Source: Deltaproteobacteria bacterium (GTDB taxonomy: Bacteria; SAR324; NAC60-12). From it: DNA of 50,147 bases. Below are positions 4,103 through 50,040 of this stretch, in pieces. The notes below the pieces were generated by a model. That model made no database searches and was not told where the DNA came from. It worked only from the letters and a program-made list of their open reading frames with translations. The position numbers were made by a program, and so were the translations under genes. Where the stretch lies: the NCBI GenBank assembly GCA_038150265.1, contig JAYOTF010000024.1:1-50147 (forward strand). Direction: 5' to 3'. The first letter of the stretch is position 1, and every line of letters begins with the position of its first letter.

Positions 4103-4737
4103 ATATTGACCCGCTTGCCTTGATCCGCGACAACCTGGCTGTCTTGCGACTTCACCAGCCCGCCCATCTCGCGGATCATCTCAAACACGCCAAACATCAG
4201 CGTCTCCTTGCCGTTTTCCTCCATCATCTCGGCAAACGACCGGTGGATGCTCTCTGTCGACTCCATCAGCTGCGCAAACTCTGGTTGCTTCAGCAGCTCG
4301 AAGGCCCGCAGGTAGTGTTCCTCGTCGCCCATCAGGTCCTCCAGCTTGCCGCCGAGGTCCGACAGCTCGTCGAGCTTCAGGTTCTGATACTCCGGAAGCG
4401 CCTCAATCTGCTTGCGGGCAGCGCTGTTGAGTTCCTCAATCCGGCGATCAATTGTGGCCCCCAGCTGTTCGGCCGCCTCACCTGAGAGCCCACCACGTCG
4501 AGCCACGTTCTCGTAGCTGGAGATGACCATGCCGTAGGAACGGCGCACCGTCATCGTCGCGTGATGACTGCTCGCCGGGCGAATGTTGTTCAGTTCCGGG
4601 TTCGGCGGCATTTTTTGCTGCCCAATCTGAGGAGCCATGTCCTTCAGGTCGGGCTGCCCTCCGCCTTCCTTCGTTTTGGCCGATTCCGCCTCGTTCCGGC
4701 TAGGAGGGGCAGAGTTGGGAGAAGCTGTAATTTTCAT
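4093..4737 (-). CDS. Hypothetical protein (214 aa, helical, acidic)
   Basis: ATG preceded by GAGGA, host-like codon usage, fills the gap between fbp and pfaA; ends in GKRVNIQA. No family recognised with confidence. Confidence 0.75.
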
Positions 4738-4853
4738 GAATCCTCGTCACAAACAAAATACCAAGTACGCGTTTTGGTCTGACTCTGGCAATACAAGATC
4801 CTAGCCATCCCGAATTCAGGTCCTCCCTGAAGCCTGCGGGATCGCGGAAAAAC

Positions 4854-4881
4854 TTGCACCCCTACCGGTTTGCTTTAGCAT
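4854..4881 (+). promoter_or_regulatory. Possible sigma70 promoter of the pfa operon
   Basis: TTGCAC-N16-TAGCAT in an AT-richer patch ~75 nt upstream of ATG 4956. Confidence 0.25.
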
Positions 4882-4955
4882 AAATTGTTTTTGGCCGTCT
4901 CCTCTTTCAGACACAGGCCACAGGCATTCTGGTGCATAGGAACTGTTCCAAGCTC

Positions 4956-7900
4956 ATGAAATCAGACACAAATCGACGCCTCCACGAAACCCCAATCGCC
5001 GTTGTCGGCATCTCCGCCCTGTTTCCGGAAGCCCCCGACCTCGAAAAATACTGGGACAACATCGTCCGCAAAGTGGACGCCATCACAGAGATCCCAGCGG
5101 ACCGCTGGAACGTCGATGACTACTACGACCGTGACAAAAGCGCTCCCGACAAGACCTACAGCCGTCGCGGAGGCTTCCTCCCTGAGGTCGACTTCGACCC
5201 CATGGACTTCGGCATCCCCCCCAACCTGCTGGAACAGACGGACTCTTCCCAGCTTTTGGGACTGCTCGTGGCGCGAGATGCCCTGGAAGACGCGGGTTAC
5301 GCCGACGCCTCGGAAGCCATCCGCGACCGCACCGGCGTGATCCTCGGCGTCACCGCCGGCATGAAGCTCCTGGGCTCCCTGACGGCCCGACTCCAGTACC
5401 CCGTCTGGGAAAAGGTCCTGCGGCAGTCCGGACTGAACGAAGCCGATACTGCGACGGTTATTGAAAAGATCAAAGCCGCCTACGTCCGCTGGGAAGAAGC
5501 GTCCTTCCCCGGACTCCTGGGCAACGTCATCTCCGGACGCATCGCCAACCGCCTTGACCTCGGTGGCACCAACTGCACCGTCGATGCCGCCTGTGGCAGC
5601 TCCCTGGCCGCCGTCAAAATGGCCGTGAGCGACCTCGTTGAGGGACGTGCCGACATGATGATCACGGGAGGAGTCGACACCGACAACTCCCCCTTCATGT
5701 ACATGTGCTTCAGCAAAACCCCAGCGTTTACCACCGAAGACCGCGTCCAGCCCTTTGACGAAAACTCCAAGGGCATCATGATCGGAGAAGGCCTCGGCAT
5801 GGTCGTGCTCAAGCGCCTTGAAGATGCTGAACGCGACGGCGATCACGTCTACGCGGTCATCAAGGGGCTGGGTTCCTCCAGCGACGGACGCTTCAAGAGC
5901 ATCTACGCCCCTCGAGCGGCCGGACAGGCCAAGTGCCTGCGTCGCGCCCATGAAGACGCGGGGGTCCATGCCTCCACCGTCACCCTCGTGGAAGCCCACG
6001 GCACCGGAACCAAGGCCGGCGATGCCACCGAATTCGACGGCCTGCAAACCGTTTACAGCGAAGCAGAAACCCCGCTCCAGAGCATCGCCATCGGCAGCGT
6101 CAAGTCTCAGATTGCTCACACCAAAGCCACTGCCGGAGCGGCGGGTCTCATCAAGGTTGCGCTGGCTCTGCACCACAAGGTGCTGCCCCCCATCATCAAC
6201 CTGGAAACGCCCAACCCGAACCTGAAGGTCGAGGAAACGCCTCTTTACCTCAACTCGGAAACTCGCCCCTGGATCACGGACGGCACTCCCCGACGCGCAG
6301 GCGTCAGTGCCTTTGGTTTTGGCGGCACCAACTTCCACTTCATCCTCGAAGAGCACCAGGCCCTTCACAAGGGGCCCTACCGCCTGCACCAAACGCCTCA
6401 GACGCTCCTGTTCGCCGCCGAGACTCCGGAGGCCCTCAAGCAAAAGATTGCCGCAGCCGCAGAGGCGCTCTCAGGTGAGCAGGCCCACACCACCTTTGTG
6501 GAGCAGGTCCAGCAGTCCCGGAACCCACTTCAGCCCACTCATGCTCGCCTGGGACTCGTCGCCGAGTCGGCTGACGAAGCAAGTGCAGCCTTGAAATCGG
6601 CTCTCGAGACCTTTGAGAAGAAAGCCGATGCGACCTCCTGGAGCGTCAAGGGGGTGACCTACCGGCAGTCCGGAATGGACCCCAAGGGCAAGGTCGTTGC
6701 GCTCTTCTCCGGACAAGGCTCCCAGTACCTCAACATGGGCCGAGAGCTGTTCACCAACTTCCCGCCTCCGCTTGAGGTCTATGGTCAACTCGACCGGCTG
6801 TTCAGCGAGTCCCAACAAAAACCGCTGTCGCAGATCGTCTTCCCGCCCCCGGCGTTCACCCCAGACACCCAGGCAGCGCAAGACGCCCAGTTGCAACTGA
6901 CTCAACACGCGCAACCCGGAATCGGAGGCGTCAGCGCCGGCCTCTTCAAGATCCTGACTGACGCTGGCTTCCAGCCGGACTTCACTGCCGGACACAGCTT
7001 TGGCGAACTCACGGCCCTGTGGGCCGCCGGCGTGTTCTCTGAAGCGGATTACTGCAAGCTCGCGTTTGCCCGGGGTCAGGCCATGAAGGCTCCGGAAGAC
7101 CCGAACTTTGAAGCAGGGACCATGATGGCCGTCATGGGCAAACTGGACCAGCTTGAAGACGACCTGAAGGCGTTTCCGGAAGTCGTCATGGCCAACCTGA
7201 ACTCTCCGAAGCAGGTGGTCGTTGCCGGTCCAACAGCCGCGGTCCAGGAGGCTCACGCGGCGCTCAAGGAGAAGAAGTACAACGCCGTCCTCCTCCCGGT
7301 TTCCGCCGCTTTCCACACCAAACTGGTGGGCCACGCGCAGAAGCCGTTTGCCGAAGCCATCCGCTCCGTCAAGTTCAACAAGCCCAGGGTTCCGGTTTAC
7401 TCAAATGCCACTTCCGAGGCGTACCCGAGCGATCCCAAGGCCATCCAGAAACGCCTTGAGGAGCACATCCTCAACTCGGTCCGGTTCCGGGAAGAGATTG
7501 AAAACATTCATGCGGCCGGCGGTCGCATCTTTGTTGAGTTTGGTCCCAAGAATGTGCTGACCAAGCTTGTTGAAGCCATCCTCGGTGGCCAGGAATTTAC
7601 GGCAATTGCTCTCAACGAGAACCCCAAGAAAGACAGCGATCGCCTGTTCCGTCAGGCGGTCACGGACCTGATGGTCCTCGGGCTTCCGCTTCAGGGCTAC
7701 GACCCTTATCCCTGGGAACGCCCCAAGCCCACCCGCAAACGGTCTCCGTTGACGCTGAAAATGACCGGCGCCAACTACGTCAGTGACGCGACTCGCAAGC
7801 GCTTCCAGGATGCCCTGAATGACGGCTTCCAGCTGTCTTCCGGAGGCTCCGGATCGTCCGGAAGCAATGGGCCATCAGGCTCGTCCGGTGGAACTCGTCC

Positions 7901-9458
7901 TGCCGTTGAGGCCCCGAAGCCTCAGCCGGTGGCACCACCGCAAGCCGCCCAGCCGAAAACCACATCGACACCAGCAAAACCGGCTCAGCCGGTCACTCCA
8001 CCTCCGCAAAAAACGATGAGCAACACCACCTCCTCTACAAGTGTCTCGGACCTGTATTACCAGCAACAGGCCACCCTGGCGGTTCATCAGCAGTACCTTC
8101 AGCAACAAGGCGAGTACTCTCGGACGGTTCTGCAGTTGCTCCAGCAACAGCTTCAGCTGGCTTCACAGGGCCAGACCATTCCGGATACCGTCGCCCAAAG
8201 CATGCAGTGGTTCCACGCTCACCAGGGAGAGACCCTGAAGGTCCACGAATTGTACCTGACTCAGCAGGCCGAACAGATGCGCACCCTCGCGGGCAGCGCT
8301 CCTGTCGTGGCGGCTCCCGCACTGGCTCCCGCTCCCGTCGCGGCGCCGGTTCCTCCAGCCAGGCCAGCCCCGAGCTTCACGCCTCCCGTGGCGCCTCCGA
8401 CTCCGGTCGCACCTCCTGTTGCGGCAGCACCTGCCGTTCCTCAGGCCGCCCCTGCCCAACCGGCTCCGGCAGCCCCTCAGGCGGCTCCTGTGCAACCGGC
8501 TCCTGCTGTTTCTCAGCCGGCACCGGCAGCCCCTGCCGCCACTCCCGTTGACGCCAACGCGGTTCTGCTGGACATCGTTGCCGACAAAACCGGTTACCCC
8601 AAGGAAATGCTGGAGCCCGAAATGGACCTCGAAGCCGACCTGGGCATTGACTCCATCAAGCGCGTTGAAATCCTCGGAACCGTTCAGGATCGCCTCCCGG
8701 ACATTCCCGGAATCCGCGGTGATGAAATGGGAGAGCTGCGCACCCTCGGACAGATCCAGGAATACCTCCAGGCCAAGGCTCCGGCAGCTGCAGCCCCAAG
8801 CCCTGCCGCATCTCCGGAACCGGCGGCTCCTCAAGCGGCTCCAGCCCCCCAACCGGCTGCCGCCTCGAATGCCGCAGACCCGGCTGAAGCCCTCCTTGCG
8901 GTCATCAGCGAAAAAACCGGCTACCCGGTGAACATGCTGGAAATGAGCATGGAACTGGAAGCGGACCTCGGAGTCGACTCCATCAAGCGCGTCGAGATCA
9001 TGTGGGCCATCCAGGAAAAATTCCCGCAGCTTCCGCAGCTGGACAACCAGGCCCTCGCAGAAATGCGTAGCCTCGGACAGATTGCCGATCACCTGAGCAC
9101 CCTGCTTCCGGCCACCAATGGGCACGCTCCCGTCAGTGACGCGCCGGCTTCATCGGTCATCAGTGCTGCTACCGTTGAAGACTCCCTGCTCACGGTCATC
9201 AGTGAAAAAACCGGCTACCCCAAGGAAATGCTGGAGCTGTCCATGGACCTCGAAGCCGACCTCGGGGTCGACTCCATCAAGCGCGTCGAGATCATGTGGG
9301 CCATCCAGGAAAAGCTTCCGGGCCTTCAGGAAGTCAACACCGGCGACCTGGGCGAGCTCCGGACCTTGCAGCAAATTGCCGACAAACTGGCCGCACACCT
9401 GCCCACTGCTCCGGTCGCCACCAGTGACCCTGCATCAGAGGTAAAAAAAAACTCCTGA
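4956..9458 (+). CDS. pfaA: PUFA-synthase-type polyketide synthase PfaA, N-terminal part (KS-MAT-ACP-ACP-ACP), 1500 aa
   Basis: KS: PIAVVG, VDAACGSS, EAHGTGT, GSVKSQIAHTK, SAFGFGGTN; AT: FSGQGSQY, GHSFGE, VSAAFHT; three ACPs DLG(I/V)DSIKRVEI separated by Pro/Ala linkers. ATG 4956 preferred over GTG 4932. Ends EVKKNS* just after an A9 run. Confidence 0.95.
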   Translation: MKSDTNRRLHETPIAVVGISALFPEAPDLEKYWDNIVRKVDAITEIPADRWNVDDYYDRDKSAPDKTYSRRGGFLPEVDFDPMDFGIPPNLLEQTDSSQLLGLLVARDALEDAGYADASEAIRDRTGVILGVTAGMKLLGSLTARLQYPVWEKVLRQSGLNEADTATVIEKIKAAYVRWEEASFPGLLGNVISGRIANRLDLGGTNCTVDAACGSSLAAVKMAVSDLVEGRADMMITGGVDTDNSPFMYMCFSKTPAFTTEDRVQPFDENSKGIMIGEGLGMVVLKRLEDAERDGDHVYAVIKGLGSSSDGRFKSIYAPRAAGQAKCLRRAHEDAGVHASTVTLVEAHGTGTKAGDATEFDGLQTVYSEAETPLQSIAIGSVKSQIAHTKATAGAAGLIKVALALHHKVLPPIINLETPNPNLKVEETPLYLNSETRPWITDGTPRRAGVSAFGFGGTNFHFILEEHQALHKGPYRLHQTPQTLLFAAETPEALKQKIAAAAEALSGEQAHTTFVEQVQQSRNPLQPTHARLGLVAESADEASAALKSALETFEKKADATSWSVKGVTYRQSGMDPKGKVVALFSGQGSQYLNMGRELFTNFPPPLEVYGQLDRLFSESQQKPLSQIVFPPPAFTPDTQAAQDAQLQLTQHAQPGIGGVSAGLFKILTDAGFQPDFTAGHSFGELTALWAAGVFSEADYCKLAFARGQAMKAPEDPNFEAGTMMAVMGKLDQLEDDLKAFPEVVMANLNSPKQVVVAGPTAAVQEAHAALKEKKYNAVLLPVSAAFHTKLVGHAQKPFAEAIRSVKFNKPRVPVYSNATSEAYPSDPKAIQKRLEEHILNSVRFREEIENIHAAGGRIFVEFGPKNVLTKLVEAILGGQEFTAIALNENPKKDSDRLFRQAVTDLMVLGLPLQGYDPYPWERPKPTRKRSPLTLKMTGANYVSDATRKRFQDALNDGFQLSSGGSGSSGSNGPSGSSGGTRPAVEAPKPQPVAPPQAAQPKTTSTPAKPAQPVTPPPQKTMSNTTSSTSVSDLYYQQQATLAVHQQYLQQQGEYSRTVLQLLQQQLQLASQGQTIPDTVAQSMQWFHAHQGETLKVHELYLTQQAEQMRTLAGSAPVVAAPALAPAPVAAPVPPARPAPSFTPPVAPPTPVAPPVAAAPAVPQAAPAQPAPAAPQAAPVQPAPAVSQPAPAAPAATPVDANAVLLDIVADKTGYPKEMLEPEMDLEADLGIDSIKRVEILGTVQDRLPDIPGIRGDEMGELRTLGQIQEYLQAKAPAAAAPSPAASPEPAAPQAAPAPQPAAASNAADPAEALLAVISEKTGYPVNMLEMSMELEADLGVDSIKRVEIMWAIQEKFPQLPQLDNQALAEMRSLGQIADHLSTLLPATNGHAPVSDAPASSVISAATVEDSLLTVISEKTGYPKEMLELSMDLEADLGVDSIKRVEIMWAIQEKLPGLQEVNTGDLGELRTLQQIADKLAAHLPTAPVATSDPASEVKKNS
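8973..9313 (+). repeat. 47-bp exact direct repeat shared by ACP2 and ACP3 coding sequences
   Basis: GTCGACTCCATCAAGCGCGTCGAGATCATGTGGGCCATCCAGGAAAA at 8973-9019 and 9267-9313. Confidence 0.9.
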
Positions 9459-9479
9459 GTGAGCCGGCGCCCTACTCGG
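9443..9479 (+). other. Candidate -1 recoding signal (A9 slippery run plus 3' hairpin) joining the two pfaA parts
   Basis: GTA AAA AAA AAC TCC TGA in frame 0 (A run 9443-9451); the -1 frame is open from 9428 to 11884; stem CUGAGU(G)AG 9455-9463 / CUACUCGG 9472-9479 follows. Confidence 0.6.
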
Positions 9480-11884
9480 TTACGGTCGGTCGCCCGCAAC
9501 TTCAGCCCCTTCCGCCTCCAGATCGTCTGGAGGACGCCCTTCCTGCGTCCGGATCGTACCTGATTCTGGACAACGGTTCTGCTTGTGCCGCCCAGCTTCT
9601 GGACACCCTGACCGAGCAGGGAGGCACCCTCTTTCTGCTCCGCCTTCCCGGAGTTGCCGCCTCCCGTCGCAAATCGGCCCGGAAAGCCTCCACCGCTTCA
9701 CTGCCTGATGCCTCTGAAGCCTCCCTTCAGAACGCCCTCGCGGCCCTCAAGCTGACTCAACTGGACGGCGTCTTCCTCTTTTTGCCAGCTACCGAAGCCT
9801 CATTGCGTCTGAGCAGCGCCACCGGACAGGCGCTTCAGATCAGCTTCTTGCTGGCCAAAGCGGTCAGCCCCCTGCTCACTCAGGCTCCCCGGGCCTCATT
9901 CCTGGCGGTGACGCAACTGGATGGCGCCTTGGGAACCCGCTCTCCGCAAGGCTGGATGGACCGAGGCGTGACGGGATTGACCAAGACCCTTTCACGCGAG
10001 TGGCCGCACCGCTTCTGCCGCACCGTCGATCTTTCTCCAGAGCTGTCTCCGGAACAAGCCACCCAGCACCTCCTCGCGGAAGCACAGGACCCAGACCGAC
10101 GCCTCCTGGAAGCCGGCTGGAGCCCCTCCGGACGCGTGGGCCTGTTGCCCGGAGCCCTTGAAAGCCCACAGCCTCCACTCACGCTTCCGGAGCACCCGGT
10201 CTGGCTCGTCAGTGGTGGCGCCCGTGGAGTCACCGCGGACTGCACCCTTGCACTGGCCGAGCGAGCCCCGGGAACCTTCTTGCTGGTGGGGCGGTCTCCG
10301 CTTCAGGAGGAACCGGCCTGGGCCTCGGGACTCACCGCTGAGGCTGAACTGCGGCAAGCGGCCATGAAGGCGCTCACCGACTCCGGAGAAAAGCCTACTC
10401 CGCCCAAACTCCGGCAGATGATGGCTCGGGTTGAAGCCAACCGTGCCATCCGGAAGACGCTGGATCAGCTGCAGGCGCTCGGCAGCACGGGCCACTACCT
10501 CAGCGCTGATGCCACCAATGCCGAGCAGCTCAAGGCAGCCCTGGCTCCGGTGCTTCAGCAATCCGGACCCGTCACCGGGGTCATTCATGGCGCAGGTGTT
10601 TTGGCAGACAAGCTGATCGAGAAAAAAACCGAGGCAGACTTCCAATCCGTCGTGGGGACCAAGGTCGAAGGCCTGAACGCCCTTTTGGAAGCCGTCGAGC
10701 CGAGCCGCCTGAGCCACCTCCTCCTCTTCTCATCAGGAGCCGGATTCTACGGAAATGCCGGGCAGTCCGACTATTCCATGGGCAACGAAATCCTCAACCG
10801 CGCGGCCCTTGTCTTTCAGCAGGAGCACCCGACCTGTCAGGTCATTTCCTACAACTGGGGTCCATGGGAAGGGGGCATGGTCACTCCGGAGCTAAAGCGC
10901 ATGTTTGAAGAGCGCGGGGTCGAGGTCATTCCCGTTACAGAAGGCGCCCGCATTTTTGCCGATGCCGCCCTGCAGCAGCCTGCCGGACTGCCCATCTTGC
11001 TGGTGGGGAACGCGCTCTCCGGCGATTCGGAACCACCCGCGCCGCTTCAGCAACGCATCTGGCGTCAGGTGACTCCGGAACTCAACCCTGGGCTCAACGA
11101 CCACCGCATCGGTGCCCACAACGTGGTCCCAGCCGTCTTGGCACTGGAATGGATGGTGGACGCCGTCGCCGCCTGCATTCCGGGCTACCACCTGCAACGC
11201 TGCACCGACTTCAAGGTGCTGAAGGGCATCCTCTTCGATGAAGACCTTGCCCCCGCCTACCTGCTGGACATTCAGGAAGCAGACGCCCCTGCAGCAGGCA
11301 CCCGGACCTTCCACCTCAAGGTGTCCAGCCACACCGGCAAGCTGCCGCGCTACCACTACAGCGTCACCTGCACCTTCAGCCAGACGCCTCCGGACGTTCC
11401 ACAGGAAGCCCTTCCCCGCGTCGATCAGGCTCAACCCGGAAGCCACTTCTACGAAAATGGCACCCTCTTCCACGGGCCCCTGTTTCAAGCGGTCCAGGAC
11501 GTCACTCGGCTCACCGAGCAGCAGCTGGTTGCTCGGTGTCAGGCGCCCGCGGTGCCTCCGGAGGCTCAGGGGCAGTTCCCGGTGGGACCGGTCAACGCCT
11601 ATGCCCTCGACCCGGCGTTTCAGGTCATGCTCATCTGGGCCCGGCACTTCCAGGGTGCCGGCAGCCTGCCGTTGCAGTTTGAGCAGCTCGAGTGCTTCCG
11701 GCCCCTGCCTTTTGAAACGGAGTTCCTGATCGACCTGAAGGTCCGGAGCGCCTCCGAAACACAGCTGCAGGCCGACTTGACCCTGCTTGCGCCAGATGGA
11801 GCCGTCTATGCTCGCATGCGTGGCGCTCAGGTGACCCTGAGCCCGAACCTGAATGCGCTCTTTCAGCCCCACTCTGCCCATTAA
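9443..11884 (+). CDS. pfaA: PfaA C-terminal part (KR structural + catalytic subdomains and PKS-type DH), in the -1 frame relative to 4956..9458
   Basis: KR: LVSGGARGVT, VIHGAGVLADKLIEKK, FSSGAGFYGNAGQSDYSMGNE, WGPWEGGMVT; DH: LNDHRIGAHNVVP, FYENGTLFHGPLFQ. The frame extends 118 codons upstream of the ORF-track TTG (9782) with PfaA-like sequence and no ATG/GTG/TTG. Confidence 0.9.
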   Translation, partial: KKKLLSEPAPYSVTVGRPQLQPLPPPDRLEDALPASGSYLILDNGSACAAQLLDTLTEQGGTLFLLRLPGVAASRRKSARKASTASLPDASEASLQNALAALKLTQLDGVFLFLPATEASLRLSSATGQALQISFLLAKAVSPLLTQAPRASFLAVTQLDGALGTRSPQGWMDRGVTGLTKTLSREWPHRFCRTVDLSPELSPEQATQHLLAEAQDPDRRLLEAGWSPSGRVGLLPGALESPQPPLTLPEHPVWLVSGGARGVTADCTLALAERAPGTFLLVGRSPLQEEPAWASGLTAEAELRQAAMKALTDSGEKPTPPKLRQMMARVEANRAIRKTLDQLQALGSTGHYLSADATNAEQLKAALAPVLQQSGPVTGVIHGAGVLADKLIEKKTEADFQSVVGTKVEGLNALLEAVEPSRLSHLLLFSSGAGFYGNAGQSDYSMGNEILNRAALVFQQEHPTCQVISYNWGPWEGGMVTPELKRMFEERGVEVIPVTEGARIFADAALQQPAGLPILLVGNALSGDSEPPAPLQQRIWRQVTPELNPGLNDHRIGAHNVVPAVLALEWMVDAVAACIPGYHLQRCTDFKVLKGILFDEDLAPAYLLDIQEADAPAAGTRTFHLKVSSHTGKLPRYHYSVTCTFSQTPPDVPQEALPRVDQAQPGSHFYENGTLFHGPLFQAVQDVTRLTEQQLVARCQAPAVPPEAQGQFPVGPVNAYALDPAFQVMLIWARHFQGAGSLPLQFEQLECFRPLPFETEFLIDLKVRSASETQLQADLTLLAPDGAVYARMRGAQVTLSPNLNALFQPHSAH

Positions 11885-11909
11885 CCCCTGACGGGAGCCC
11901 GTAGTTTCA

Positions 11910-14900
11910 ATGCCTGAACCCATTGCCGTTGTTGGCCTTTCGTGCCTGTTCCCTGGAGCCCACACTCCGGAAGCCTTCTGGAAGAACCTCCTGGCTGGAG
12001 CCGACTCGCGCTCCGCGGTTACCGAACAGCAGCTTCATGTGGCGCCCTCTCGGTTCTTGACCGACCGCAAGGGCGTGGTCGATCGCTACTACTGCGCTCA
12101 GGGGGGCTACCTGCACGACTTCCACTTCAATCCGGAAGGGTTTCAGCTCCCCGCTGCCCAGCTGCAGGGCCTCGATGATGTCTATCAGTGGCCTCTGCAC
12201 GTCGCTCGTGAAGCCCTGCGGGACGCGCAGTTGCTCGACCGTCCGGAGCTGCTGAAGCACTGCGGGATCATTCTCGGGAACCTCTCCTTCCCGACCAAGT
12301 CCTCGAACCACCAGGCGCTTCCGCTCTATCAGGAAGCCTGGGAGCCGCTGCTGCAACGCCTGCTCAATCGCTCCGACTTCCACCTCCAGAACTTCGGAAC
12401 CGACCCCTCAGGGCGCCTCCAACCGGGTCCGGACGCGCTGGAAATTGCCGGGCGCCCAGCGTCTCTGATTGCTCAGGCACTCGGACTCTCCGGACGCGCC
12501 TACGCGCTTGATGCGGCGTGTGCGTCGTCGCTCTACAGCGTCGGACTGGCCTGCCACACCCTGTGGACGCATCAGACCGATGTCATGCTCGCCGGAGCAG
12601 TCAGCGCTGCCGACCCGTTCTTTGTCAACATGGGGTTTTCCATCTTTCAGGCCTATCCGGAATCCGGAGGCAGCCACCCCCTCGACAAAAATTCAGGGGG
12701 CCTCTTTGCCAGCGAAGGCGCCGGCATGTTTGTCCTGAGGCGCCTCTCGGACGCACAGCGGGAGGGCAACCCCATCCATGCCCTCATCTCTGGTGTCGGC
12801 CTCTCGAACGACGGACGCGGGCAGTTTGTCCTCAGCCCCAACCCCAAAGGCCAGCGGCTCGCTTTTGAACGCGCCTATGCCACATCCGGGATCGACCCGC
12901 AGGCGACGGATTACATCGAATGCCACGCCACTGGTACTCCGCTGGGAGACAAGGTTGAGCTCAACTCCATGGAAGCCTTTTTTGGCAACCGTGGCAGCAC
13001 TCCCCCCATCGGATCCGTCAAGTCCAACCTGGGCCACATGCTCACAGCCGCCGGAATGGGCGGGATGACCAAGGTCATCCTCTCCCTTCAGCACGGACAG
13101 ATTCCTGGCACCATCGGAGTCGACGACCCGCTGGTTTCTGAAAAGGGGCTCTTTGGCGGAGACCGAACCCTCCGGAGCCTCACCCGCTGGCCACACGAAC
13201 GCTCGCCCCGAACCGCTGCCGTCAGCGCCTTTGGCTTTGGTGGCTGCAACGCGCACCTGATTCTGCAAAACACTGCCGAAGCCCCTTCAGAGGCCCCAGC
13301 GCCCACGCCGCTGCCTCCGCTTGCGGTGCTGGGAATGGATGCCATCTTCGGCGACCGCAATGGCCTCAGCGCCATGGAACACGCCTTTCTGGAGGGCGAA
13401 ACGGCCTTCCGGAGCCTCCCGGAAACTCGGTGGCGGGGACTCGGGCATCCGGAGGCGGGGCTTTCGGGCGCCTGGCTGGAATCCTTTGAGATGGACTTCC
13501 TCCGCTTCCGGCTGCCTCCGAATCCCCAGGAACGCCTCATTCCCCAACAGCTGCTGACGCTTGAAGTCGCCGACCGCGCCATCCGGCAGACGCCCCTGAA
13601 GGAAGGCCAAAATGTCGCGGTGCTGGTCGCCATGGAAGCCGAACTGGAGCTGCACCGCTTCCGGGGACGCGTCAACCTGGCCACGCAGTTGGAAGACAGC
13701 CTGGCAGCGTCCGGAATTGTGCTTTCCGACGAGCAACGTCAGGAGCTGGAAGCCGTTGCCAAGGATGCGCTGCTGGAAGCGGTGCCGGTCAATCGCTTCA
13801 CCAGCTTCATTGGAAACATCATGGCCTCGCGCATCAGCGCGCTTTGGGACTTCACCGGCCCGGCCCTGACCGTTTCTTCAGAAGAGACCTCGGTCTTCAA
13901 GGCCCTTGAAGTGGCGCAGATGCTGCTGGGTTCCGGAAGTGTCGACGCCGTCGTGGTGGCAGCCGTCGACCTGGCCGGAAGCGCCGAGTCGGTGACCCTT
14001 CGGAGCAAGGCCTTTCCCCTGCAGTCCGGAAGCCCGCGCTGGCCTCAGGAAGCCGGTGGCGCAGGCTGGATCCCCGGAGAGGGGGCAGGCGCCCTGGTTC
14101 TCACCACACAGGAGCAGGCTCCAGACGCCACTCCGCTTGCCCTGATTGAGGCCGTCGCCTTTGCTTCCGGAACACAAGGCGATGCCGTCCGCCAAGCTGC
14201 TCAGGCAGCACTCGCAGCCGCTCAGGCTCGTCCGGAAGACATTGGCTTGCTCACCCTGCAGGCAGCAGGGCTCGATGCCCGCGATGCGGCTGAGTGGGAA
14301 GGCCTGCAGGCCCTCTATCCGGAAGCGGCGCTTGGGGGTCCGTCTGCGCACTTCGGACACAGCTTTGCCGCCTCGGGAATGGTTTCGTTGCTGGAAGCCC
14401 TGATCGCCGTCCGGTCCCGGACCCTCCCAGCCCTCCCCAACTGGGAAGCGCCCAAAGGGGACGGATCCGCTTCTGGCCTGTACGTTCCCCCTGAATCGCG
14501 TCCGTGGTTCCGGAATGCTGATGCTCCGGCTCGGCGTGCAGCCGTCAGCAGCCTGGGACAGGAGACCGCACACGCCATCATCAGTGAAGCGCCTTCTGCG
14601 GCGGCGGCTCCGGAAGCCGTCCCCTCGGCCAATACCGGGGGGCTCTTCCTCCTTCCCGTCACGGCTCCGGATGCGGCTCAACTGCTGGAGCGCCTCAAGG
14701 CTCTGCAGGAGCTGCTGCACCACCAGACCCCGCTTCCGGAGCTGGCTCGCCAGACGTTCGAGGCGCAGCAACAGGCATCCGGAGGCCTGGGGGTCGCCCT
14801 GCTGGGCAGGACCCATGAGGAGCTGCTTCAGGAGCTGACCTCCGCCCAGGCCGGCATTCCACAAGCCGTTGCGTCCGGAAAGGACTGGGTCACTCCGCGC

Positions 14901-17900
14901 GGAAGTAGCTTCTCCCCCGCCCCCCTTGGGCTGGCAGGCAAAGTGGCCTTCACCTACCCCGGAGGCTTCAACAGCTACCTCGGCAACAGCCGAACCGCCT
15001 TCCGCCTCATGCCGGAGCTGCACGAGTCCATGGCGTCGCACACCACCCGCCTGGGGGCCGCTCTGCACGACCGTCGGCTCTACCCACGGACCCAGCAACG
15101 CCTCAGTGAAGCCGAGCTGCAGCAGGCGCAGGAAGACTTCATCAACACGCCCATTGCGATGTTTGAAAGCGGCATCACCACCGGTGTCCTCCACACCAAG
15201 CTGATGCGCGAAGGCTTTGGCCTGCAACCCGACCTGGCGTTTGGGTACAGCATGGGCGAGGTGACGATGATGTTTGCCCTCGGCGTGTGGGGGTCGATGG
15301 ATCCGATGTCTGACCTGCTGGACGCCTCTCCGCTCTTCAAGGAGCGGCTCTGTGGTCCCATGAACACCGTCCGCGAGGCCTGGAAGCTGGCCCCAGAGGA
15401 ACGACGGGGCGAGCCCATCTGGCACTGGTACACCCTCCGAGCCACTCCGGAGGCAACCCGCAAGGCCCTGGAAGCCGAGGAGCGCGCCTACCTCATCCTG
15501 ATCAATACGCCTCAGGAAGTGGTCCTGGCCGGAGACGCCGAGGCCTGCGAGCGGGTGGCCCAGACGCTTGGGGTCGAGCCACACCCGATTCAGGTGACCG
15601 ACGTGGTGCACTGTGCTCCGGTCCAGGCCGACTACGACGAAGTGAAGCACGTCCACACGCACCCGGTGGTGGGACAGCCTCCTCTTGATTTCTACTCGGC
15701 CCTGAATTACCGCCCCACGGAGCTGGACTCCGACACCATCGGTCACAACATTGCGCAGATTTATGGCCGCACCGTGGACTACACGCGGCTCATTGAAAAC
15801 ACCTACGCAGATGGTGCCCGGATCTTTGTGGACCTCGGCCCACGCGTTAGCTGTGCCAAGTGGATCAGCGAAACCCTGGGGGAACGCCCGCACCTCGCCG
15901 TCGGGGTCAGCCGCCGAGGCGTCGATGACCGCACCCAGGTGCTCCGGACGCTGGCACGTCTGTTCAGCCACCGGGTCCCGCTCAATCTGGAACGCCTCGC
16001 GCCGCCGGTTCCGGAACGTCCAACCCGAGAGCTGCGCCAGACCATCGTCTTGGGAGGTGCGCCGCTCCAGAGCATCGACACCCCTGAAAACCGAGCCCGC
16101 TTTGCGGCACCAGCTGCTGTTGCAGCCGCTCCTGTTTCCCCGGAACCCCCGGCTTCTCCGGAACCTCAACCCCCTGTAATGCCCATGCCTCCGGCTGCTG
16201 ACACTCCGGCGCCCCCGACTTCTGTTCCTGCTGCTTCTCCAGCCCCGGTTCCGGATGGCTGGTGGGGAGATTACCCAGGCCGTCTGGGTCAGGCCCACGC
16301 CGCGTTTCTGCAATTCCGACAAGAGGGCATGCGGCAAATGGCCTCCCTGATTCTGCAGCAAATGGGGGGTGTCTTCTCGGCACCAGAACCCGTCCTCACG
16401 CGGGTGCCTCCGCAGCCAGCAGCATCAGGCCCCGTGGCGTTCGACAGCCAGGCGCTGCAGCAACAGGCCGCCGCTCAACCAGCCCCCCCGGAGGCAAACG
16501 GTCCGAAGCCTCCGGGCGTGCTCTTCGATCATCAGGACCTGCTGGAGTTTGCTGGCGGACAGATTGCCAATGTCTTTGGGCTCGAGTATGCGGAGATTGA
16601 CACCTTCCGGCGCTGCGTCCGGTTGCCGCTGGATCCGTACCTGCTGGTCAGTCGGGTCACCAAGCTGGATGCCAAGCTCGGGGAGTTCAAGCCCTCCACG
16701 ATTACCACCGAATACGACATTCCGCAAAAGGCCTGGTACTGCACGGATGGACAGATTCCGTGGGCCGTTGCCGTTGAGTCCGGGCAGTGCGACCTGATGC
16801 TCATCAGCTTCCTCGGGATTGATTTCGAATGCCGGGGCGACCGGGTGTATCGGCTGCTCGACTGCACCCTGACTTACCTCGAAGACATGCCTCGCGAAGG
16901 GGAAACCCTCCGCTATGACATCTTCATTGATTCCTTTGCCCGGAATGGTGGAACGCTCCTGTTCTTCTTCCACTACGAATGCTTTGTTGGCGACCGCATG
17001 GTGATGCGCATGGATGGGGGCTGTGCCGGTTTCTTCACCGATGAAGAGCTGGCGGTCGGCAACGGCGTCATCCGGACCCAGAAGGAGCTGGACGCCCGGC
17101 ATGAAGCAACCAAGCTCTACTTTGAGCCCCTGCTGCACTGCTCCAAGACGCAGTTCCGGCGCGAAGAGCTCCTCGCGCTCTCCACCGGGCATCCGGAGGT
17201 GTGCTTTGGACCGCATTACGCGCAGCCCGGAAGGAACCCTTCGCTGAAGACCGCTCCGGAGCAGTTCCTCATGCACGATCGCATCACGCTGGTGGATCGC
17301 ACCGGTGGCGACTGGGGCTGTGGACTCGTGCTCTCGGAAAAGGACCTGGCGCCCGACCACTGGTACTTCCCCTGCCACTTCAAGGATGACCCTGTGCTCG
17401 CAGGCTCGCTCATGGCAGAAGGCTGTGTGCAGCTCATGCAGTTCTTCATGCTCGACCTTGGCCTGCAGACCCGGACTCAGGATGCGACCTTCCAGCCGAT
17501 CCACGGCATGTCCCAGATCGTCCGCTGCCGGGGCCAGGTCATCCCCGGAGACACACTCCTGACCTACCGCATGGAGGTCCGGGAAATTGGCCTCGACCCA
17601 ATCCCGTATGCGATTGCGGATGTTGACATTTTGCTGGGAGACAAGATCGTGGTGGACTTCCGGAACCTCGGGGTGCAGCTGGTCGAAAAGGGCAGCACCT
17701 TCCGCCTGACGCAGGAGTGGTTTGACACGCATCCGGAACGCCCGGCGCTTCAGTCCACTCAGGCGAATGCTCCTCAGGTGCCCCAACCCTCAGCCGAGGA
17801 GACCGGTTGGGTCGCTGATGATCAGCAGATGTGGGAGTTTGCCCTGGGGGAGGTGGCCAAGTGCATGGGGCCCGATTACGCGGTTTATCACAACCGCCCC

Positions 17901-18935
17901 GTACAGCGAAACCCCAACGGCGACCTGCAGCTGCTCTCCCGCGTCCGGAGCTTCTCGGGCACACGCTTCAAGTACGATGAGCCGATGCGCATCGTCGGTG
18001 AATACGATGTCCCTGCAGACGCCTGGTACTTCCGAGACAACGCCCACCCGGCCCAGATGCCCTACTCGGTGCTGATGGAAATTGCGCTTCAGCCCTGCGG
18101 CTTCATCTCCGCATACTCGGGCGCCATGTTCCACTACCAGAGCCAGGACCTGCACTACCGGAACCTGGACGGCAACGGGACCCTCCTCGCGCTTCCCGAC
18201 CTGAGGGGCAAGACCATTGTCTCCGAAATCACGCTGAAGAGCACCGTCGCTTCCGGAAACACCGTGATCCAGACCCACGACTTCGCCCTCTCTGTTGACG
18301 GCGAGCGCTTCTATGAAGGCGACACGGTTTTCGGATACTTCACCGATGAAGCCCTCGCCAATCAGGTGGGGCTGGATGCAGGCGAAAAGAAGGCGCCCTG
18401 GGTGGAGGCTCATGCGCCAGAGGTGACTCTGGACCTCACGAAGGATGGCTCGTGGTTTCATGGAAAAGACGGGCGCCCCTTCCAGCGCCTCGGGTCCGGA
18501 CAGCTCAGCCTGCTGGATGAGCTCCGGATCAGTGCCAAGGGAGGGCTTCACGAGCAGGGCTACGTCTATGGCGTCCGGGAGGTCGACTCGGAAGACTGGT
18601 TCTTCCCCTACCACTTCCATCAGGACCCGGTGATGCCGGGCTCGCTGGGGGTGGAGGCAACCCTCGAGGCGATCCAGGGCTTTGCCCTCCAGCAGGGGCT
18701 GGCGGATCGTTTCCAGAACCCGCGCTTCAGCTGGAACCTCTCCCGAACGGCCTGGCGGTACCGTGGGCAGATCATTCCGGAAACCGGGAAGATGCAGCTG
18801 GAAGCCCACCTCAAGGAAATCCGGGAAGAGCTGGGCCAGACCGTTATCGTTGCCGACGGCTCTCTGTGGCGCGACGACCTGAGGATCTATGCCCTCACGG
18901 ACCTCGTCATCGAAATCCGGGAGTGCGGCCAGTAA
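11910..18935 (+). CDS. pfaBC: Fused PfaB/PfaC-type synthase subunit (KS-CLF-AT-pseudoDH/FabA-like DH x2)
   Basis: KS with LDAACASS, ECHATGT, SAFGFGGCN; second KS-fold lacking the catalytic Cys (SSEETS; chain-length factor); PfaB-type AT with GYSMGE; two FabA-like DH sites WYFPCHFKDDPVLAGSLMAEG and WFFPYHFHQDPVMPGSLGVEA. Confidence 0.93.
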   Translation: MPEPIAVVGLSCLFPGAHTPEAFWKNLLAGADSRSAVTEQQLHVAPSRFLTDRKGVVDRYYCAQGGYLHDFHFNPEGFQLPAAQLQGLDDVYQWPLHVAREALRDAQLLDRPELLKHCGIILGNLSFPTKSSNHQALPLYQEAWEPLLQRLLNRSDFHLQNFGTDPSGRLQPGPDALEIAGRPASLIAQALGLSGRAYALDAACASSLYSVGLACHTLWTHQTDVMLAGAVSAADPFFVNMGFSIFQAYPESGGSHPLDKNSGGLFASEGAGMFVLRRLSDAQREGNPIHALISGVGLSNDGRGQFVLSPNPKGQRLAFERAYATSGIDPQATDYIECHATGTPLGDKVELNSMEAFFGNRGSTPPIGSVKSNLGHMLTAAGMGGMTKVILSLQHGQIPGTIGVDDPLVSEKGLFGGDRTLRSLTRWPHERSPRTAAVSAFGFGGCNAHLILQNTAEAPSEAPAPTPLPPLAVLGMDAIFGDRNGLSAMEHAFLEGETAFRSLPETRWRGLGHPEAGLSGAWLESFEMDFLRFRLPPNPQERLIPQQLLTLEVADRAIRQTPLKEGQNVAVLVAMEAELELHRFRGRVNLATQLEDSLAASGIVLSDEQRQELEAVAKDALLEAVPVNRFTSFIGNIMASRISALWDFTGPALTVSSEETSVFKALEVAQMLLGSGSVDAVVVAAVDLAGSAESVTLRSKAFPLQSGSPRWPQEAGGAGWIPGEGAGALVLTTQEQAPDATPLALIEAVAFASGTQGDAVRQAAQAALAAAQARPEDIGLLTLQAAGLDARDAAEWEGLQALYPEAALGGPSAHFGHSFAASGMVSLLEALIAVRSRTLPALPNWEAPKGDGSASGLYVPPESRPWFRNADAPARRAAVSSLGQETAHAIISEAPSAAAAPEAVPSANTGGLFLLPVTAPDAAQLLERLKALQELLHHQTPLPELARQTFEAQQQASGGLGVALLGRTHEELLQELTSAQAGIPQAVASGKDWVTPRGSSFSPAPLGLAGKVAFTYPGGFNSYLGNSRTAFRLMPELHESMASHTTRLGAALHDRRLYPRTQQRLSEAELQQAQEDFINTPIAMFESGITTGVLHTKLMREGFGLQPDLAFGYSMGEVTMMFALGVWGSMDPMSDLLDASPLFKERLCGPMNTVREAWKLAPEERRGEPIWHWYTLRATPEATRKALEAEERAYLILINTPQEVVLAGDAEACERVAQTLGVEPHPIQVTDVVHCAPVQADYDEVKHVHTHPVVGQPPLDFYSALNYRPTELDSDTIGHNIAQIYGRTVDYTRLIENTYADGARIFVDLGPRVSCAKWISETLGERPHLAVGVSRRGVDDRTQVLRTLARLFSHRVPLNLERLAPPVPERPTRELRQTIVLGGAPLQSIDTPENRARFAAPAAVAAAPVSPEPPASPEPQPPVMPMPPAADTPAPPTSVPAASPAPVPDGWWGDYPGRLGQAHAAFLQFRQEGMRQMASLILQQMGGVFSAPEPVLTRVPPQPAASGPVAFDSQALQQQAAAQPAPPEANGPKPPGVLFDHQDLLEFAGGQIANVFGLEYAEIDTFRRCVRLPLDPYLLVSRVTKLDAKLGEFKPSTITTEYDIPQKAWYCTDGQIPWAVAVESGQCDLMLISFLGIDFECRGDRVYRLLDCTLTYLEDMPREGETLRYDIFIDSFARNGGTLLFFFHYECFVGDRMVMRMDGGCAGFFTDEELAVGNGVIRTQKELDARHEATKLYFEPLLHCSKTQFRREELLALSTGHPEVCFGPHYAQPGRNPSLKTAPEQFLMHDRITLVDRTGGDWGCGLVLSEKDLAPDHWYFPCHFKDDPVLAGSLMAEGCVQLMQFFMLDLGLQTRTQDATFQPIHGMSQIVRCRGQVIPGDTLLTYRMEVREIGLDPIPYAIADVDILLGDKIVVDFRNLGVQLVEKGSTFRLTQEWFDTHPERPALQSTQANAPQVPQPSAEETGWVADDQQMWEFALGEVAKCMGPDYAVYHNRPVQRNPNGDLQLLSRVRSFSGTRFKYDEPMRIVGEYDVPADAWYFRDNAHPAQMPYSVLMEIALQPCGFISAYSGAMFHYQSQDLHYRNLDGNGTLLALPDLRGKTIVSEITLKSTVASGNTVIQTHDFALSVDGERFYEGDTVFGYFTDEALANQVGLDAGEKKAPWVEAHAPEVTLDLTKDGSWFHGKDGRPFQRLGSGQLSLLDELRISAKGGLHEQGYVYGVREVDSEDWFFPYHFHQDPVMPGSLGVEATLEAIQGFALQQGLADRFQNPRFSWNLSRTAWRYRGQIIPETGKMQLEAHLKEIREELGQTVIVADGSLWRDDLRIYALTDLVIEIRECGQ

Positions 18936-37506: not shown

Positions 37507-37509
37507 GTC

Positions 37510-41843: not shown

Positions 41844-41861
41844 GTGATGGAGCTCCCAAAA

Positions 41862-44805: not shown

Positions 44806-44974
44806 CCCCCTCCGTTTGCCCCCTCCAGCCTGCCTCGCTTCTTCCTCATCCAGCATCTCCCTCTAAGGAACTTTTGGATGAACTGATACAGGTGAAGGTT
44901 TTTAACAGGGCAATCGCATGAAACAACTGGCTAGCAGAATGGGCTTAGCGGTTGGTGGGGACTCTCGCTTGGGG

Positions 44975-45191
44975 GTCCTCCCAGCGCAGGCTGGGATCCA
45001 GCAAGAAGCCTTCGACAAGTCAGACACCAAAACTGAGTCATCCCAGCGCAGGCTGGAATCCAGCAAGAAGCCTTCGACAAGTCAGACACCAAACTGAGTC
45101 ATCCCAGCGCAGGCTGGGATCCAGTCCTTGACAGATACCGAACCGATGGCCTTCACTTCCTTGACGGGGTTCCCGCCTTCACGAGAAGGAC
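44975..45191. repeat. REP/dRS3-like palindrome cluster: three 27-bp copies at a 61-62 bp period plus a degenerate inverted copy
   Basis: GTC(A/C)TCCCAGCGCAGGCTGG(G/A)ATCCAG at 44975, 45037 and 45098, separated by near-identical 34/35-bp linkers; GGGGTTCCCGCCTTCACGAGAAGGAC at 45166-45191 looks like a decayed inverted partner. Confidence 0.85.
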
Positions 45192-45300
45192 GGACCTTTC
45201 GATCCATTCATGACTCCAGCGAGGAAACCTCTCCCACGAGTCACGACTGTTTTTTCAGGCTTAGCAGGGCTCTTTTCCTCGTGCGAAGTCTTTGGTTTTT

Positions 45301-45321
45301 AAATTTACATAATATAAATTT
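45301..45321. promoter_or_regulatory. AT-rich inverted repeat upstream of the ynjBCD-like operon (possible operator)
   Basis: AAATTTACAT-A-ATATAAATTT, 9 of 10 positions symmetric, inside a ~55-bp very AT-rich patch. Confidence 0.35.
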
Positions 45322-45489
45322 GAAAATTAAAATATTACTAAAATCCATCCCCCAGCAAAACGGGAGGCGCGCCCCTCGGCCTCCGGGTCCACCTTGCCTT
45401 GCAGTTCCTGAAGGGAGTGCCATCGTGTTCTCATGCGTCTGAAATCCGGGGCCTGCCCCTTTGCCTCATCCTTTTCCCAAGTTCTGCGG

Positions 45490-48401: not shown

Positions 48402-49045
48402 GCCTGGAACTGCATCAGCTGGAGCTGCGCTGGCAGGAGCCTCCGGGACGCCTGCTTGTGCCCCCGCTCACCTGCACCATTTCCCCCGGGCAACCCGTGA
48501 CGCTGATGGGGCCCAGTGGGTCGGGGAAGTCCACCTTGCTGGCCGCCCTCTGCGGAACCCTGCCGCCCGCCTTCTCCCTGCAGGGGCGCATCCGGCTGAA
48601 CGGACGGGAACTCACGGCGCTGGCTCCGGAAGCGCGCCGGGTCGGGATTCTCTTTCAGGACGACCTCCTGTTCCCGCACCTCAGCGTTGGGGAAAATCTG
48701 GCGTTTGGGCTGCCCCGAACCTTCCGGGGGAGCATCCGCCAGCAGAAGATCCAGGAGGCTCTTGAGCAACTGGAGCTGCCAGAGGCCGCCTCTCGAGACC
48801 CGGCCACCCTCTCCGGGGGTCAGCGTGCTCGGGTTTCACTGATGCGGACCCTGCTGGCCGAGCCTGAGGCCCTGCTGCTCGATGAGCCCTTTTCCAAGCT
48901 CGATCAGGCCCTCCGGCAGCGGTTCCGGTCCTTTGTCTTTGCTCATGCCGCCTCTCGGAAACTTCCGGTGCTGCTGGTGACTCATGACCCAGAGGATGCT
49001 CAGGCGGCAGGAGGTCCGGTGATCCACCTGTCGCTTCCGGAATGA
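48398..49045 (+). CDS. ynjD: ABC transporter ATP-binding protein, YnjD-like
   Basis: MGPSGSGKSTLL, LFQDDLLFPHLSVGENL, LSGGQRAR, LLDEPFSKLD, VTHD; ATGA overlap with ynjC. Confidence 0.9.
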   Translation: MSLELHQLELRWQEPPGRLLVPPLTCTISPGQPVTLMGPSGSGKSTLLAALCGTLPPAFSLQGRIRLNGRELTALAPEARRVGILFQDDLLFPHLSVGENLAFGLPRTFRGSIRQQKIQEALEQLELPEAASRDPATLSGGQRARVSLMRTLLAEPEALLLDEPFSKLDQALRQRFRSFVFAHAASRKLPVLLVTHDPEDAQAAGGPVIHLSLPE

Positions 49046-49147
49046 AGGGTCGTGGCCACTGGGCCCCGCCTGCTCGGAGGCCCTTGCGTTTTCCGGGGCG
49101 GCTCTTTAAAATTTTGAACCTTTGCACCCTTACAATAAGGTTTGTTT

Positions 49148-49624
49148 ATGAGTGATTCGTTTCCAATGACGAAAGCAGGTTACGAAAGCCTGAAAGCGGA
49201 ACTCAAGCACCTGACCTCTGTTGAACGTCCTGCCGTGGTCCAGGCCATTGCAGAAGCGCGGGAACATGGGGATTTGAAGGAAAATGCGGAATACCATGCC
49301 GCCAAGGAGCAGCAAGGCTTTATCGAGGGGCGCATTCAGGAACTGAACGGCAAGCTTGCCCGGGCCCAGGTCATTGATGTGGCCTCGCTTTCCGGGGGAA
49401 AGGTCATCTTTGGGGCAACGGTCAGCTTTGTGGACGTTGACACCGATGAGGAGCGCCAGTACCAGATTGTTGGCGAAGATGAAGCCGACCTGGAGCAGGG
49501 CAAGATTTCCGTTGGCTCTCCCATCGCCCGAGCGCTGATTGGGAAGCAGGTGGGCGACACCGTCGTCATCCCCATTCCAAAAGGAAAAATGGAAGTGGAA
49601 GTCCTGGAAGTGGAGTTTGCATGA
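49148..49624 (+). CDS. greA: Transcription elongation factor GreA
   Basis: [53 protein letters not shown]. Confidence 0.97.
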
Positions 49625-50040
49625 AGACCCCACCGTTTCATTTGGCCTTCCCGATTCGGGACCTGGAGGCCACCCGGCAGTTTTATGTGGAGGTCCTCGG
49701 CTGCACCGTTGGACGCAGCGCTGAGCGCTGGATTGACTTCAACTTCTTTGGGCACCAACTCTCCGCCCATGTGAAGCCGGAGGAGACGCAACCGGTTCAG
49801 GCCAACGGGGTCGACGGCAAGTCGGTTCCGGTTCGGCACTTTGGAGCGGTGCTGGAGTGGGAGCACTGGCATGAGCTCGCCGAGCAGCTCCAGGCCCAGA
49901 AGGTGCGTTTCATCATTGAGCCCTACATTCGCTTCAAGGGAGAAGTGGGCGAGCAAGCCACCATGTTCTTCCTCGACCCCTCGGACAATGCCATTGAGCT
50001 GAAGTCCTTTCAGCATCCGGAACAGCTCTTTGCCACCTGA
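49621..50040 (+). CDS. VOC/glyoxalase family protein
   Basis: [48 protein letters not shown]. Confidence 0.92.

Follow-up and report, generated by a model that had tools for sequence, protein, structure and literature searches.

In Escherichia coli, the short methylatable palindrome GATC is read genome-wide by a system that includes Dam, SeqA and MutH; GATC occurs there near chance frequency, and SeqA favours site pairs that share one face of the helix. The DNA uptake sequences (DUS) of Neisseria and the uptake signal sequences (USS) of the Pasteurellaceae are over-represented, evenly spread and lineage-specific intragenic words. They are non-palindromic 9-12-mers, and we know of no helical phasing reported for them. 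Prokaryotic genomes also show a 10-11 nucleotide (nt) periodicity of AA/TT that is written through codon choice. The closest described case is the highly iterated palindrome HIP1 of cyanobacteria, GCGATCGC, together with the alternate palindromes GGCGCC, GCsGC and rCCGGy, as described in Elhai 2015 (PMC4390886) and Xu et al. 2018 (PMC5861425). Three decades after they became known, there is no agreement on what these cyanobacterial palindromes do. We analysed the hexameric palindrome TCCGGA in a 50,147-nt stretch of DNA (the window), contig G000:C24 of an assembly (G000) of 3.39 Mb in 87 contigs, with 61.2% G+C and 97.8% completeness, for which the nearest named records are metagenome-assembled genomes of the SAR324 cluster or 'Deltaproteobacteria'. 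The results support TCCGGA as an iterated palindrome outside the cyanobacteria that acts at the DNA level. We found no report of its genome-wide abundance in the literature covered, which excluded subscription journals and the supplementary tables of Elhai 2015 and Xu 2018.

The window contains 158 copies of TCCGGA, a number reached by none of 100 dinucleotide-preserving shuffles of its 50,147 nt (mean 19.05, standard deviation 4.31, maximum 30). An initial annotation of this DNA had described TCCGGA as highly iterated across the window, and the count of 158 against about 19 expected bears this out; its chance estimate of about one copy per 3 kb is close to the one per 2.6 kb given by the shuffles. 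Genome-wide there are 9,711 sites, about 1 per 349 nt, and TCCGGA is the commonest hexamer (the two strands together give 19,422 counts, and the runner-up has 10,913). The genomic observed/expected ratio (O/E) was 7.57, 3.95, 2.39 and 1.22 under Markov models of order 1, 2, 3 and 4, respectively. Among the 64 palindromic hexamers the runner-up in dinucleotide O/E reached 3.65 (AGTACT, 415 sites). According to the annotation, a spurious signal would be shared by all CCGG-centred hexamers or would vanish under an order-4 or dicodon model. The remaining fifteen NCCGGN words had dinucleotide O/E values of 0.78-2.28 against 7.57, and an excess persisted both in the order-4 model (z about 35) and in a codon-pair (dicodon) Markov model, with O/E of 1.34 in codon phase 1 (z about 14) and 1.61 in phase 2 (z about 31). 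Most of the excess is taken up by the high-order models. Their conditioning includes the overlapping pentamers TCCGG and CCGGA, and no pentamers are commoner in the genome than these two. A longer repeat element was rejected as the source of TCCGGA, as flanking positions carry no more than 0.08 bit.

Genes were called with a crude in-house codon-likelihood caller, which gave 2,591 genes and 85.7% coding DNA, with G+C of 0.66, 0.43 and 0.77 at the three codon positions; 31 of the 32 window proteins correspond to called genes, and 27 of the 32 match Pfam families. Coding DNA holds 8,528 sites (2.95 per kb), distributed over the three codon phases as 2001, 2337 and 4190, and DNA outside the gene calls holds 1,139 (2.34 per kb). 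Twenty shuffles of synonymous codons, made within each gene separately, gave 2,040 ± 47 sites, an O/E of 4.18 overall and of 3.9, 3.3 and 5.1 by codon phase, and in this comparison TCCGGA ranked first among all hexamers (z = 142). We define a permitted place as a position where the encoded protein allows TCCGGA by synonymous choice. The genome has 20,580 of them, 8,528 of which are occupied (41.4%); for example, Ser-Gly is spelled TCC-GGA in 2,001 of 5,901 cases. TCCGGA also ranked first in non-coding segments (O/E 6.14) and was again top-ranked in the 1,036 spacers of up to 300 nt, where 254 sites lie in 122.6 kb. The annotation had noted copies in all three codon phases and judged amino-acid usage an unlikely cause, which agrees with the phase counts, the spacer enrichment and the dicodon excess. 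On these results, the TCCGGA excess is caused neither by composition or codon usage nor by the protein sequence or a repeat element. A neutral by-product of mutation, codon or codon-pair bias would find its best argument in the small excess, O/E 1.22-1.61, that the order-4 and dicodon models leave. This explanation is effectively excluded, however, by enrichment in all phases and in spacers and across 45-61% G+C, and further by the retention of sites above neutral expectation, the helical phasing within synonymous choice and the avoidance of TCCGGA in sister lineages, all described below.

The distances between TCCGGA sites in G000 peak at 10.5 nt, with a ratio of spectral power to mean (power/mean) of 43.0, while 14 control words gave 1.0-6.3. 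It reaches its greatest strength at distances under 100 nt and has faded by about 300 nt. Permitted places are themselves unphased (3.1 at 11.5 nt) and the occupied places are phased (40.1 at 10.45 nt); when occupancy was shuffled among neighbouring permitted places of the same phase, 20 trials gave 0.2-4.1 against 40.6 observed. The phasing holds within every class of distance modulo 3, and a peak of 11.2 at 10.50 nt is still seen among 1,609 pairs whose members belong to separate genes or fall in non-coding DNA. Near an occupied site, the occupancy of permitted places falls to 0.12-0.16 at 12-17 nt, a short-range exclusion or dead zone, and rises to 0.48 at 30-32 nt and 0.53 at 51-53 nt, with 0.32 at 57-59 nt, relative to a baseline of 0.41. 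The helical phasing thus sits in synonymous choice and not in the protein sequence, and the use of a permitted place depends on the helical position of its neighbours out to about 300 nt. Protein alpha-helix periodicity was rejected as the source of the phasing given that permitted places are unphased. A link to A-tract curvature was rejected as well, as the AA/TT periodicity of this genome, 11.15 nt, is distinct from the 10.45-nt period of TCCGGA and the two signals show no cross-phasing.

A 10.45-nt phase that disregards both reading frame and gene borders is explained by the helical repeat alone, and TCCGGA is therefore read on double-stranded DNA. We regard it as an even chance that TCCGGA is a selected DNA-level word, most likely the site of a two-fold-symmetric (dimeric) protein, a putative reader, that binds double-stranded DNA along the chromosome. 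Among the functions listed in the annotation, a chromosome-organising role fits best, since the phasing of the copies follows the turns of the helix. Intrinsic mechanics could act without any reader if TCCGGA were anisotropically bendable and its copies were arranged to add or cancel curvature. The solution repeat of B-DNA lies in the same 10.45-10.5 nt range as the phasing and differs from the 11.15 nt of AA/TT, and adding or cancelling bends would account naturally for the occurrence of both signs of phasing (see below). We nevertheless hold bare mechanics to be improbable: the other NCCGGN words have the CCGG core in common with TCCGGA and show no enrichment and no phasing (power/mean was 14.3 for CCGG with TCCGGA included, and CCGG outside TCCGGA was not phased), the A/T content around the sites is not phased relative to them, and the abundance itself is left without a reason. 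The outer T and A are base-specific, which argues for a protein reader over the mechanics of DNA alone.

The preferred geometry differs between lineages. From whole-genome counts we compared pairs at 41-43 plus 51-53 nt, which are whole turns in G000, with pairs at 46-48 plus 56-58 nt, which are half turns. The counts were as follows.

G000: 246 at whole turns, 128 at half turns
G002: 139 at whole turns, 84 at half turns
G005: 61 at whole turns, 13 at half turns
G061: 22 at whole turns, 97 at half turns
G062: 32 at whole turns, 145 at half turns
G063: 1 at whole turns, 66 at half turns
G001: 68 at whole turns, 112 at half turns

Whole turns exceeded half turns in all 13 genomes of genus g11 with at least 20 such pairs (for example 132 against 35 in G032). 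In G062, 770 kb of sequence gave a period of 10.45-10.55 nt with a phase of -167 to 179 degrees; occupied pairs reached 15.7, permitted pairs 2.0, and the maximum of 40 shuffles was 5.2. In G063, 800 kb gave a peak of 32.6 at 10.45 nt with a phase of -160 degrees. Genome-wide, G063 has no pair at 41-43 nt and 1 at 51-53 nt, compared with 33 pairs at 46-48 nt and another 33 at 56-58 nt, and its 800-kb sample has no pair at any of 35 distances (12-16, 19-25, 28-35, 39-45, 51-54 and 61-64 nt) where about 63 were expected; distances of 9-10 nt are allowed. G000 and G001 belong to one genus and differ by these counts in the helical phase they prefer, and they are a close pair for finding the cause of the difference.

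We surveyed 88 genomes of the phylum, measuring the count of TCCGGA relative to that of the reversed word AGGCCT. TCCGGA ranged from 32-fold enriched to about 100-fold avoided, regardless of G+C. Ratios of 4-32 were found in most genomes of four genera: g1, to which G000 belongs (3.9-5.9), g11 (1.6-32, 18 genomes), g19 (14-30) and g4 (3.0-8.4). The ratio was about 1 in the nine genomes of genus g2 and 0.13-2.0 in family f2. Family f7 holds both enriched genomes (2.4-8.2) and six others, with 15-267 sites in 2.7-3.7 Mb, in which the ratio was 0.01-0.14. Enrichment was present at 45% G+C (G012) and 51% (G005), both in the pfa region, and in stretches of 57% (G062), 60% (G063) and 61% G+C; it is clade-wide and independent of G+C. 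As an outside control we used 80 loci carrying a homologue of some window gene, and 3 of the 80 were enriched, namely the closest relatives (L019-L021, O/E 4.7-6.1). Nine genomes (G083-G087, G081, G017, G067 and G068) carry 11-267 copies of TCCGGA in 1.5-3.7 Mb, against 143-1,882 of AGGCCT, and this near-loss far exceeds usual restriction-site avoidance. G066, a 1.6-Mb genome of family f4, has 357 TCCGGA against 10 AGGCCT, which could make it a separate lineage with enrichment at low density.

Such losses bear on a different origin of the phasing, in which a nuclease or recombinase that needs two copies in a set geometry removes such pairs and the abundance has another cause. Same-face pairs are nearly absent from G063, as given above, and sister lineages have purged TCCGGA to 15-76 sites per 3.1-3.4 Mb, so that enzymes acting on TCCGGA plausibly circulate in the phylum. 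G000, however, favours the same-face geometry instead of removing it, and no restriction enzyme was identified; the one candidate, orf311 (described below), has no family and a low-confidence structural model (mean predicted local distance difference test, pLDDT, of 46). We consider this explanation to have little likelihood.

Turnover of the sites was followed in G002, one contig of which is syntenic with the entire window at 78% nucleotide identity. Aligned columns hold 141 window sites, and at 36 of these the G002 protein no longer permits TCCGGA. Where the residues are unchanged, 46 of 91 sites (50.5%) are TCCGGA in G002, compared with 23.8% expected from the same codons elsewhere. Places that are permitted and unused in the window were occupied in G002 in 18 of 97 cases. 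Copies are therefore retained at about twice the neutral expectation for codon turnover, and new copies arise at other permitted places.

A methylation-linked repair ratchet, as in the HIP1 model of Elhai, would have a methyltransferase mark TCCGGA or CCGG and repair turn near-sites into sites; the annotation had offered such a generator, an orphan methyltransferase with methyl-directed or very-short-patch repair. The genome has two N6_N4-type methylase-like genes with an SPPY motif, both of which match PADLOC type II methylase models. Family searches for a C5 methylase (PF00145), Vsr, a type I/IIG methylase (PF02384), an Eco57I-type enzyme, MutH and SeqA gave no match in this 97.8%-complete genome, which is not proof of absence, and no full-length D12-class Dam-like gene was found in it.

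The first of the two genes, MT1 (258 aa, G000:C45), lies in a block (G000:C45:1404-5096, L001) with a retron-type reverse transcriptase, orf311 and orf169. The block carries the native density of TCCGGA, and in G001 the reverse transcriptase, MT1, orf311 and orf169 are kept at 62, 71, 45 and 70% identity, respectively. A full-length MT1 orthologue was found in 1 of 20 relatives, G001, and a fragment in G002. The second, MT2 (at least 379 aa, G000:C51), belongs to the core genes of the order and was found in 32 of the 44 family f1 genomes and 18 of the 19 family f2 genomes. Among these are 7 of 9 genomes of the non-enriched genus g2 and the avoiding genome G017. MT2 was found in none of the 24 genomes of families f3-f7, though 12 f7 genomes are enriched. 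Its identity to the G000 copy tracks relatedness and not TCCGGA enrichment. Six of 12 g11 copies (G033, G034, G039, G041, G046 and G048) have one in-frame stop within the MT2 match, five TGA and one TAA, and these six genomes are still strongly enriched despite it. In the relatives examined, neither MT1 nor MT2 presence tracks enrichment, and the co-occurrence of motif and methyltransferase that the annotation proposed to look for in relatives did not appear for these two genes.

Single-base variants of TCCGGA are not depleted (O/E 0.63-1.57), so that the prediction of a conversion ratchet is not borne out. The variants CCCGGA (1.57) and ACCGGA (1.39), which differ at an outer position, exceed most inner-position variants, as described for HIP1, and a CCGG-centred alternate palindrome, rCCGGy, is reported for one cyanobacterium (PMC4390886). 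The same text gives a predicted density of roughly 1 per kb, about a third of that observed here. A ratchet predicts neither the helical phasing nor its inversion. With no C5 methylase, Vsr or MutH found, with MT1 and MT2 untied to the trait and with variants undepleted, we judge the ratchet unlikely, if somewhat less so than bare mechanics or the removal of pairs by an enzyme, and the generator suggested in the annotation was not supported.

orf311 could be the endonuclease partner of MT1. Pfam, NCBIfam and PADLOC assign it to no family, and the PDB gave no sequence match; a search of 5.8 billion proteins returned only 2 homologues, and its AlphaFold model, built from three sequences, had a mean pLDDT of 46.1 and was unusable. 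No endonuclease was recognised in the genome and TCCGGA is enriched rather than avoided, which is not the pattern of a restriction-modification target.

The distribution of sites along the chromosome is close to random above short range. Counts per bin of 0.25-10 kb had Fano factors of 0.96-1.15, while six control words were more clumped (0.97-2.11). Nearest-neighbour distances are exponential with two departures: too few at 12-17 nt (47, where 161 were expected) and too many at 51-100 nt (1,401, where 1,127 were expected). Density drops near start codons, and the largest gap between sites is 3.6 kb. The features of the window, with G+C at third codon positions given as GC3, are listed here.

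4391..50021, both strands: 154 TCCGGA sites over about 30 ordinary chromosomal genes and their spacers
11966..14879, from the site list: the densest stretch, 22 sites within the PfaC-like gene (11910-18935)
7839..7862, plus strand: three TCCGGA 9 nt apart, as TCC-GGA codon pairs in phase 0
1..4390: low-density flank with 4 sites, containing the atypical gene 3-2777
3-2777, minus strand: atypical gene, G+C 52%, GC3 0.56, with 3 of 14 permitted places occupied

Thus 154 of the 158 window sites fall inside 4390-50021, the interval of the annotation. Its count of 22 copies in 11881-15000 was exact, its estimate of about 23 in 5000-11800 compares with an actual 26, and the triplet with 9-nt spacing that it placed at 7839, 7848 and 7857 is present. 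This triplet encodes a Ser/Gly-rich linker, SSGGSGSSGS, of the PfaA-like protein. In the PfaC-like gene, 37 of 67 protein-permitted places are occupied. The annotation had also suggested that site density could mark recently acquired DNA. This is weakly supported: the 15 genes of lowest GC3 have an occupancy of 0.26, compared with 0.41 overall, and occupancy is low at 3-2777. No gap exceeds 3.6 kb. Occupancy is independent of GC3 across genes (r = 0.04), and no gene with at least 10 permitted places has all of them unused. Gene 3-2777 is kept in G002 at 64% identity.

An even spread, lineage specificity and a somewhat lower frequency in atypical genes would also suit a self-recognition tag for DNA uptake or recombination, like DUS and USS and as hypothesised for HIP1. 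Rodriguez-Cruz 2026 (PMC13756078) links the abundance of HIP1 to proteins of type IV secretion systems and refers to results in which HIP1 enhances transformation. HIP1 and transformation efficiency are also the subject of a 2024 preprint. ComEC and DprA are both present in G000, but they are also present in 10 and 11 of 14 control genomes, respectively, so their presence says little. A 6-mer would give little specificity. Moreover, an uptake tag acts on a single site or strand and would predict neither the 10.45-nt phasing nor the dead zone nor the phase flip, and we think a role of this kind improbable.

Several side observations concern other words and genes. GTAGTA/TACTAC is over-represented genome-wide with an O/E of 9.65, as is TAGTAG/CTACTA (4.84; 1.81 at order 4), and palindromes containing CTAG, together with CATATG, have genomic O/E values of only 0.09-0.17. 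By Pfam matches the window is ordinary chromosome, with a pfa-type polyunsaturated-fatty-acid (PUFA) synthase (4932-18935), sugar kinases, ABC transporters and greA. The 4932-18935 cluster is a pfa-type polyunsaturated-fatty-acid or polyketide synthase with KS-AT-ACP repeats, KR-DH, and KS-CLF with two FabA domains, and it is conserved in G001, G002, G005 and G012. The product of gene 3-2777 has 925 residues, is internally repetitive and is without a Pfam family.

If TCCGGA is the site of a dimeric DNA-binding protein, a symmetric protein would bind it on double-stranded DNA chromosome-wide, and the bound proteins, or the bends they cause, would interact along the helix. Such a reader could serve compaction, self-marking, or the control of repair or replication. 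The favoured geometry in G000, G002, g11 and g4 would then place neighbours on the same face, at whole turns, whereas in g19, and weakly in G001, it would place them on opposite faces. A stronger proposal, which we put forward tentatively and think rather less probable than not, is that TCCGGA is the address of a chromosome-coating protein of the SAR324 group, with a lattice written by synonymous choice, a geometry flipped between lineages and the word purged elsewhere. If true, it would amount to a bacterial 'chromatin code' that is written in the sequence and evolves under conflict.

A number of observations weigh against a dimeric reader. No reader was found; searches of the genome for histone-fold proteins, SeqA and MutH gave no match. 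There is no operator-like array that would flag an autoregulated gene (0 clusters of at least 5 sites in 120 nt), and the nearly Poisson spread of sites above 100 nt does not indicate a regular lattice. Avoidance of hairpins, in which copies of the palindrome pair mutually, could instead underlie the dead zone at 12-17 nt. A single conserved reader is hard to square with a phase flip among close relatives, even between members of the same genus. For G001, the sample taken by itself fell short of significance (5.5, with shuffles reaching up to 5.5), and it is the whole-genome counts that lean to the inverted phase. The occupancy of permitted places in G063, 8 of 409 in empty windows against 142 of 568 in filled windows, is partly circular as both kinds of window were defined on the same 800 kb; the whole-genome counts are not. 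The gene calls come from the crude caller.

These findings add a second, denser case of an iterated palindrome, in an unrelated and ecologically widespread phylum. They provide a new clue, in that copies sense each other through helix geometry and the preferred geometry depends on lineage, and they narrow the search to readers of double-stranded DNA, for which enriched, neutral and avoiding genomes and same-face and opposite-face genomes offer contrasts. A DNA-level signal can set roughly four in ten of the codon choices open to it, which bears on models of codon usage, on the detection of horizontal transfer and on the binning and host assignment of metagenomic DNA.

Compared with GATC of E. 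coli, TCCGGA is enriched, and no SeqA, MutH or full-length D12-class Dam-like gene was found in G000. Like DUS and USS, TCCGGA is over-represented, evenly spread and lineage-specific inside genes; unlike them, it is a palindromic 6-mer and helically phased. The AA/TT signal resembles that of TCCGGA in being of helical scale and written through codon choice, but in G000 it lies at 11.15 nt and is not phased with TCCGGA.

The comparison with HIP1 draws on the available portions of the three papers cited above. As with HIP1 and the alternate palindromes, TCCGGA is a short G+C-rich palindrome that is hyper-abundant in all frames and between genes, and it shares its CCGG core with rCCGGy (PMC4390886). 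It is conserved above neutral expectation, the criterion of Xu 2018, here from the window against one relative (46 of 91 compared with 23.8%), and it is lineage-specific with exceptions inside the clade and has no agreed function, again as for HIP1. Unlike HIP1, no trait-linked methyltransferase was found for TCCGGA. Helical phasing, phase inversion and the presence of enriching and purging lineages within one phylum are absent from the HIP1 literature as far as these texts extend (PMC4390886, PMC5861425, PMC13756078). Xu 2018 (PMC5861425) reports a periodicity of 18-94 kb for HIP1 and does not use the word 'helical', whereas the period of TCCGGA is 10.45 nt with a lineage-dependent phase; the contigs here are too short for the kilobase scale. 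TCCGGA further differs from HIP1 in belonging to the SAR324 phylum and in being a 6-mer that recurs about once per 350 nt, where HIP1 is an 8-mer found about once per kb.

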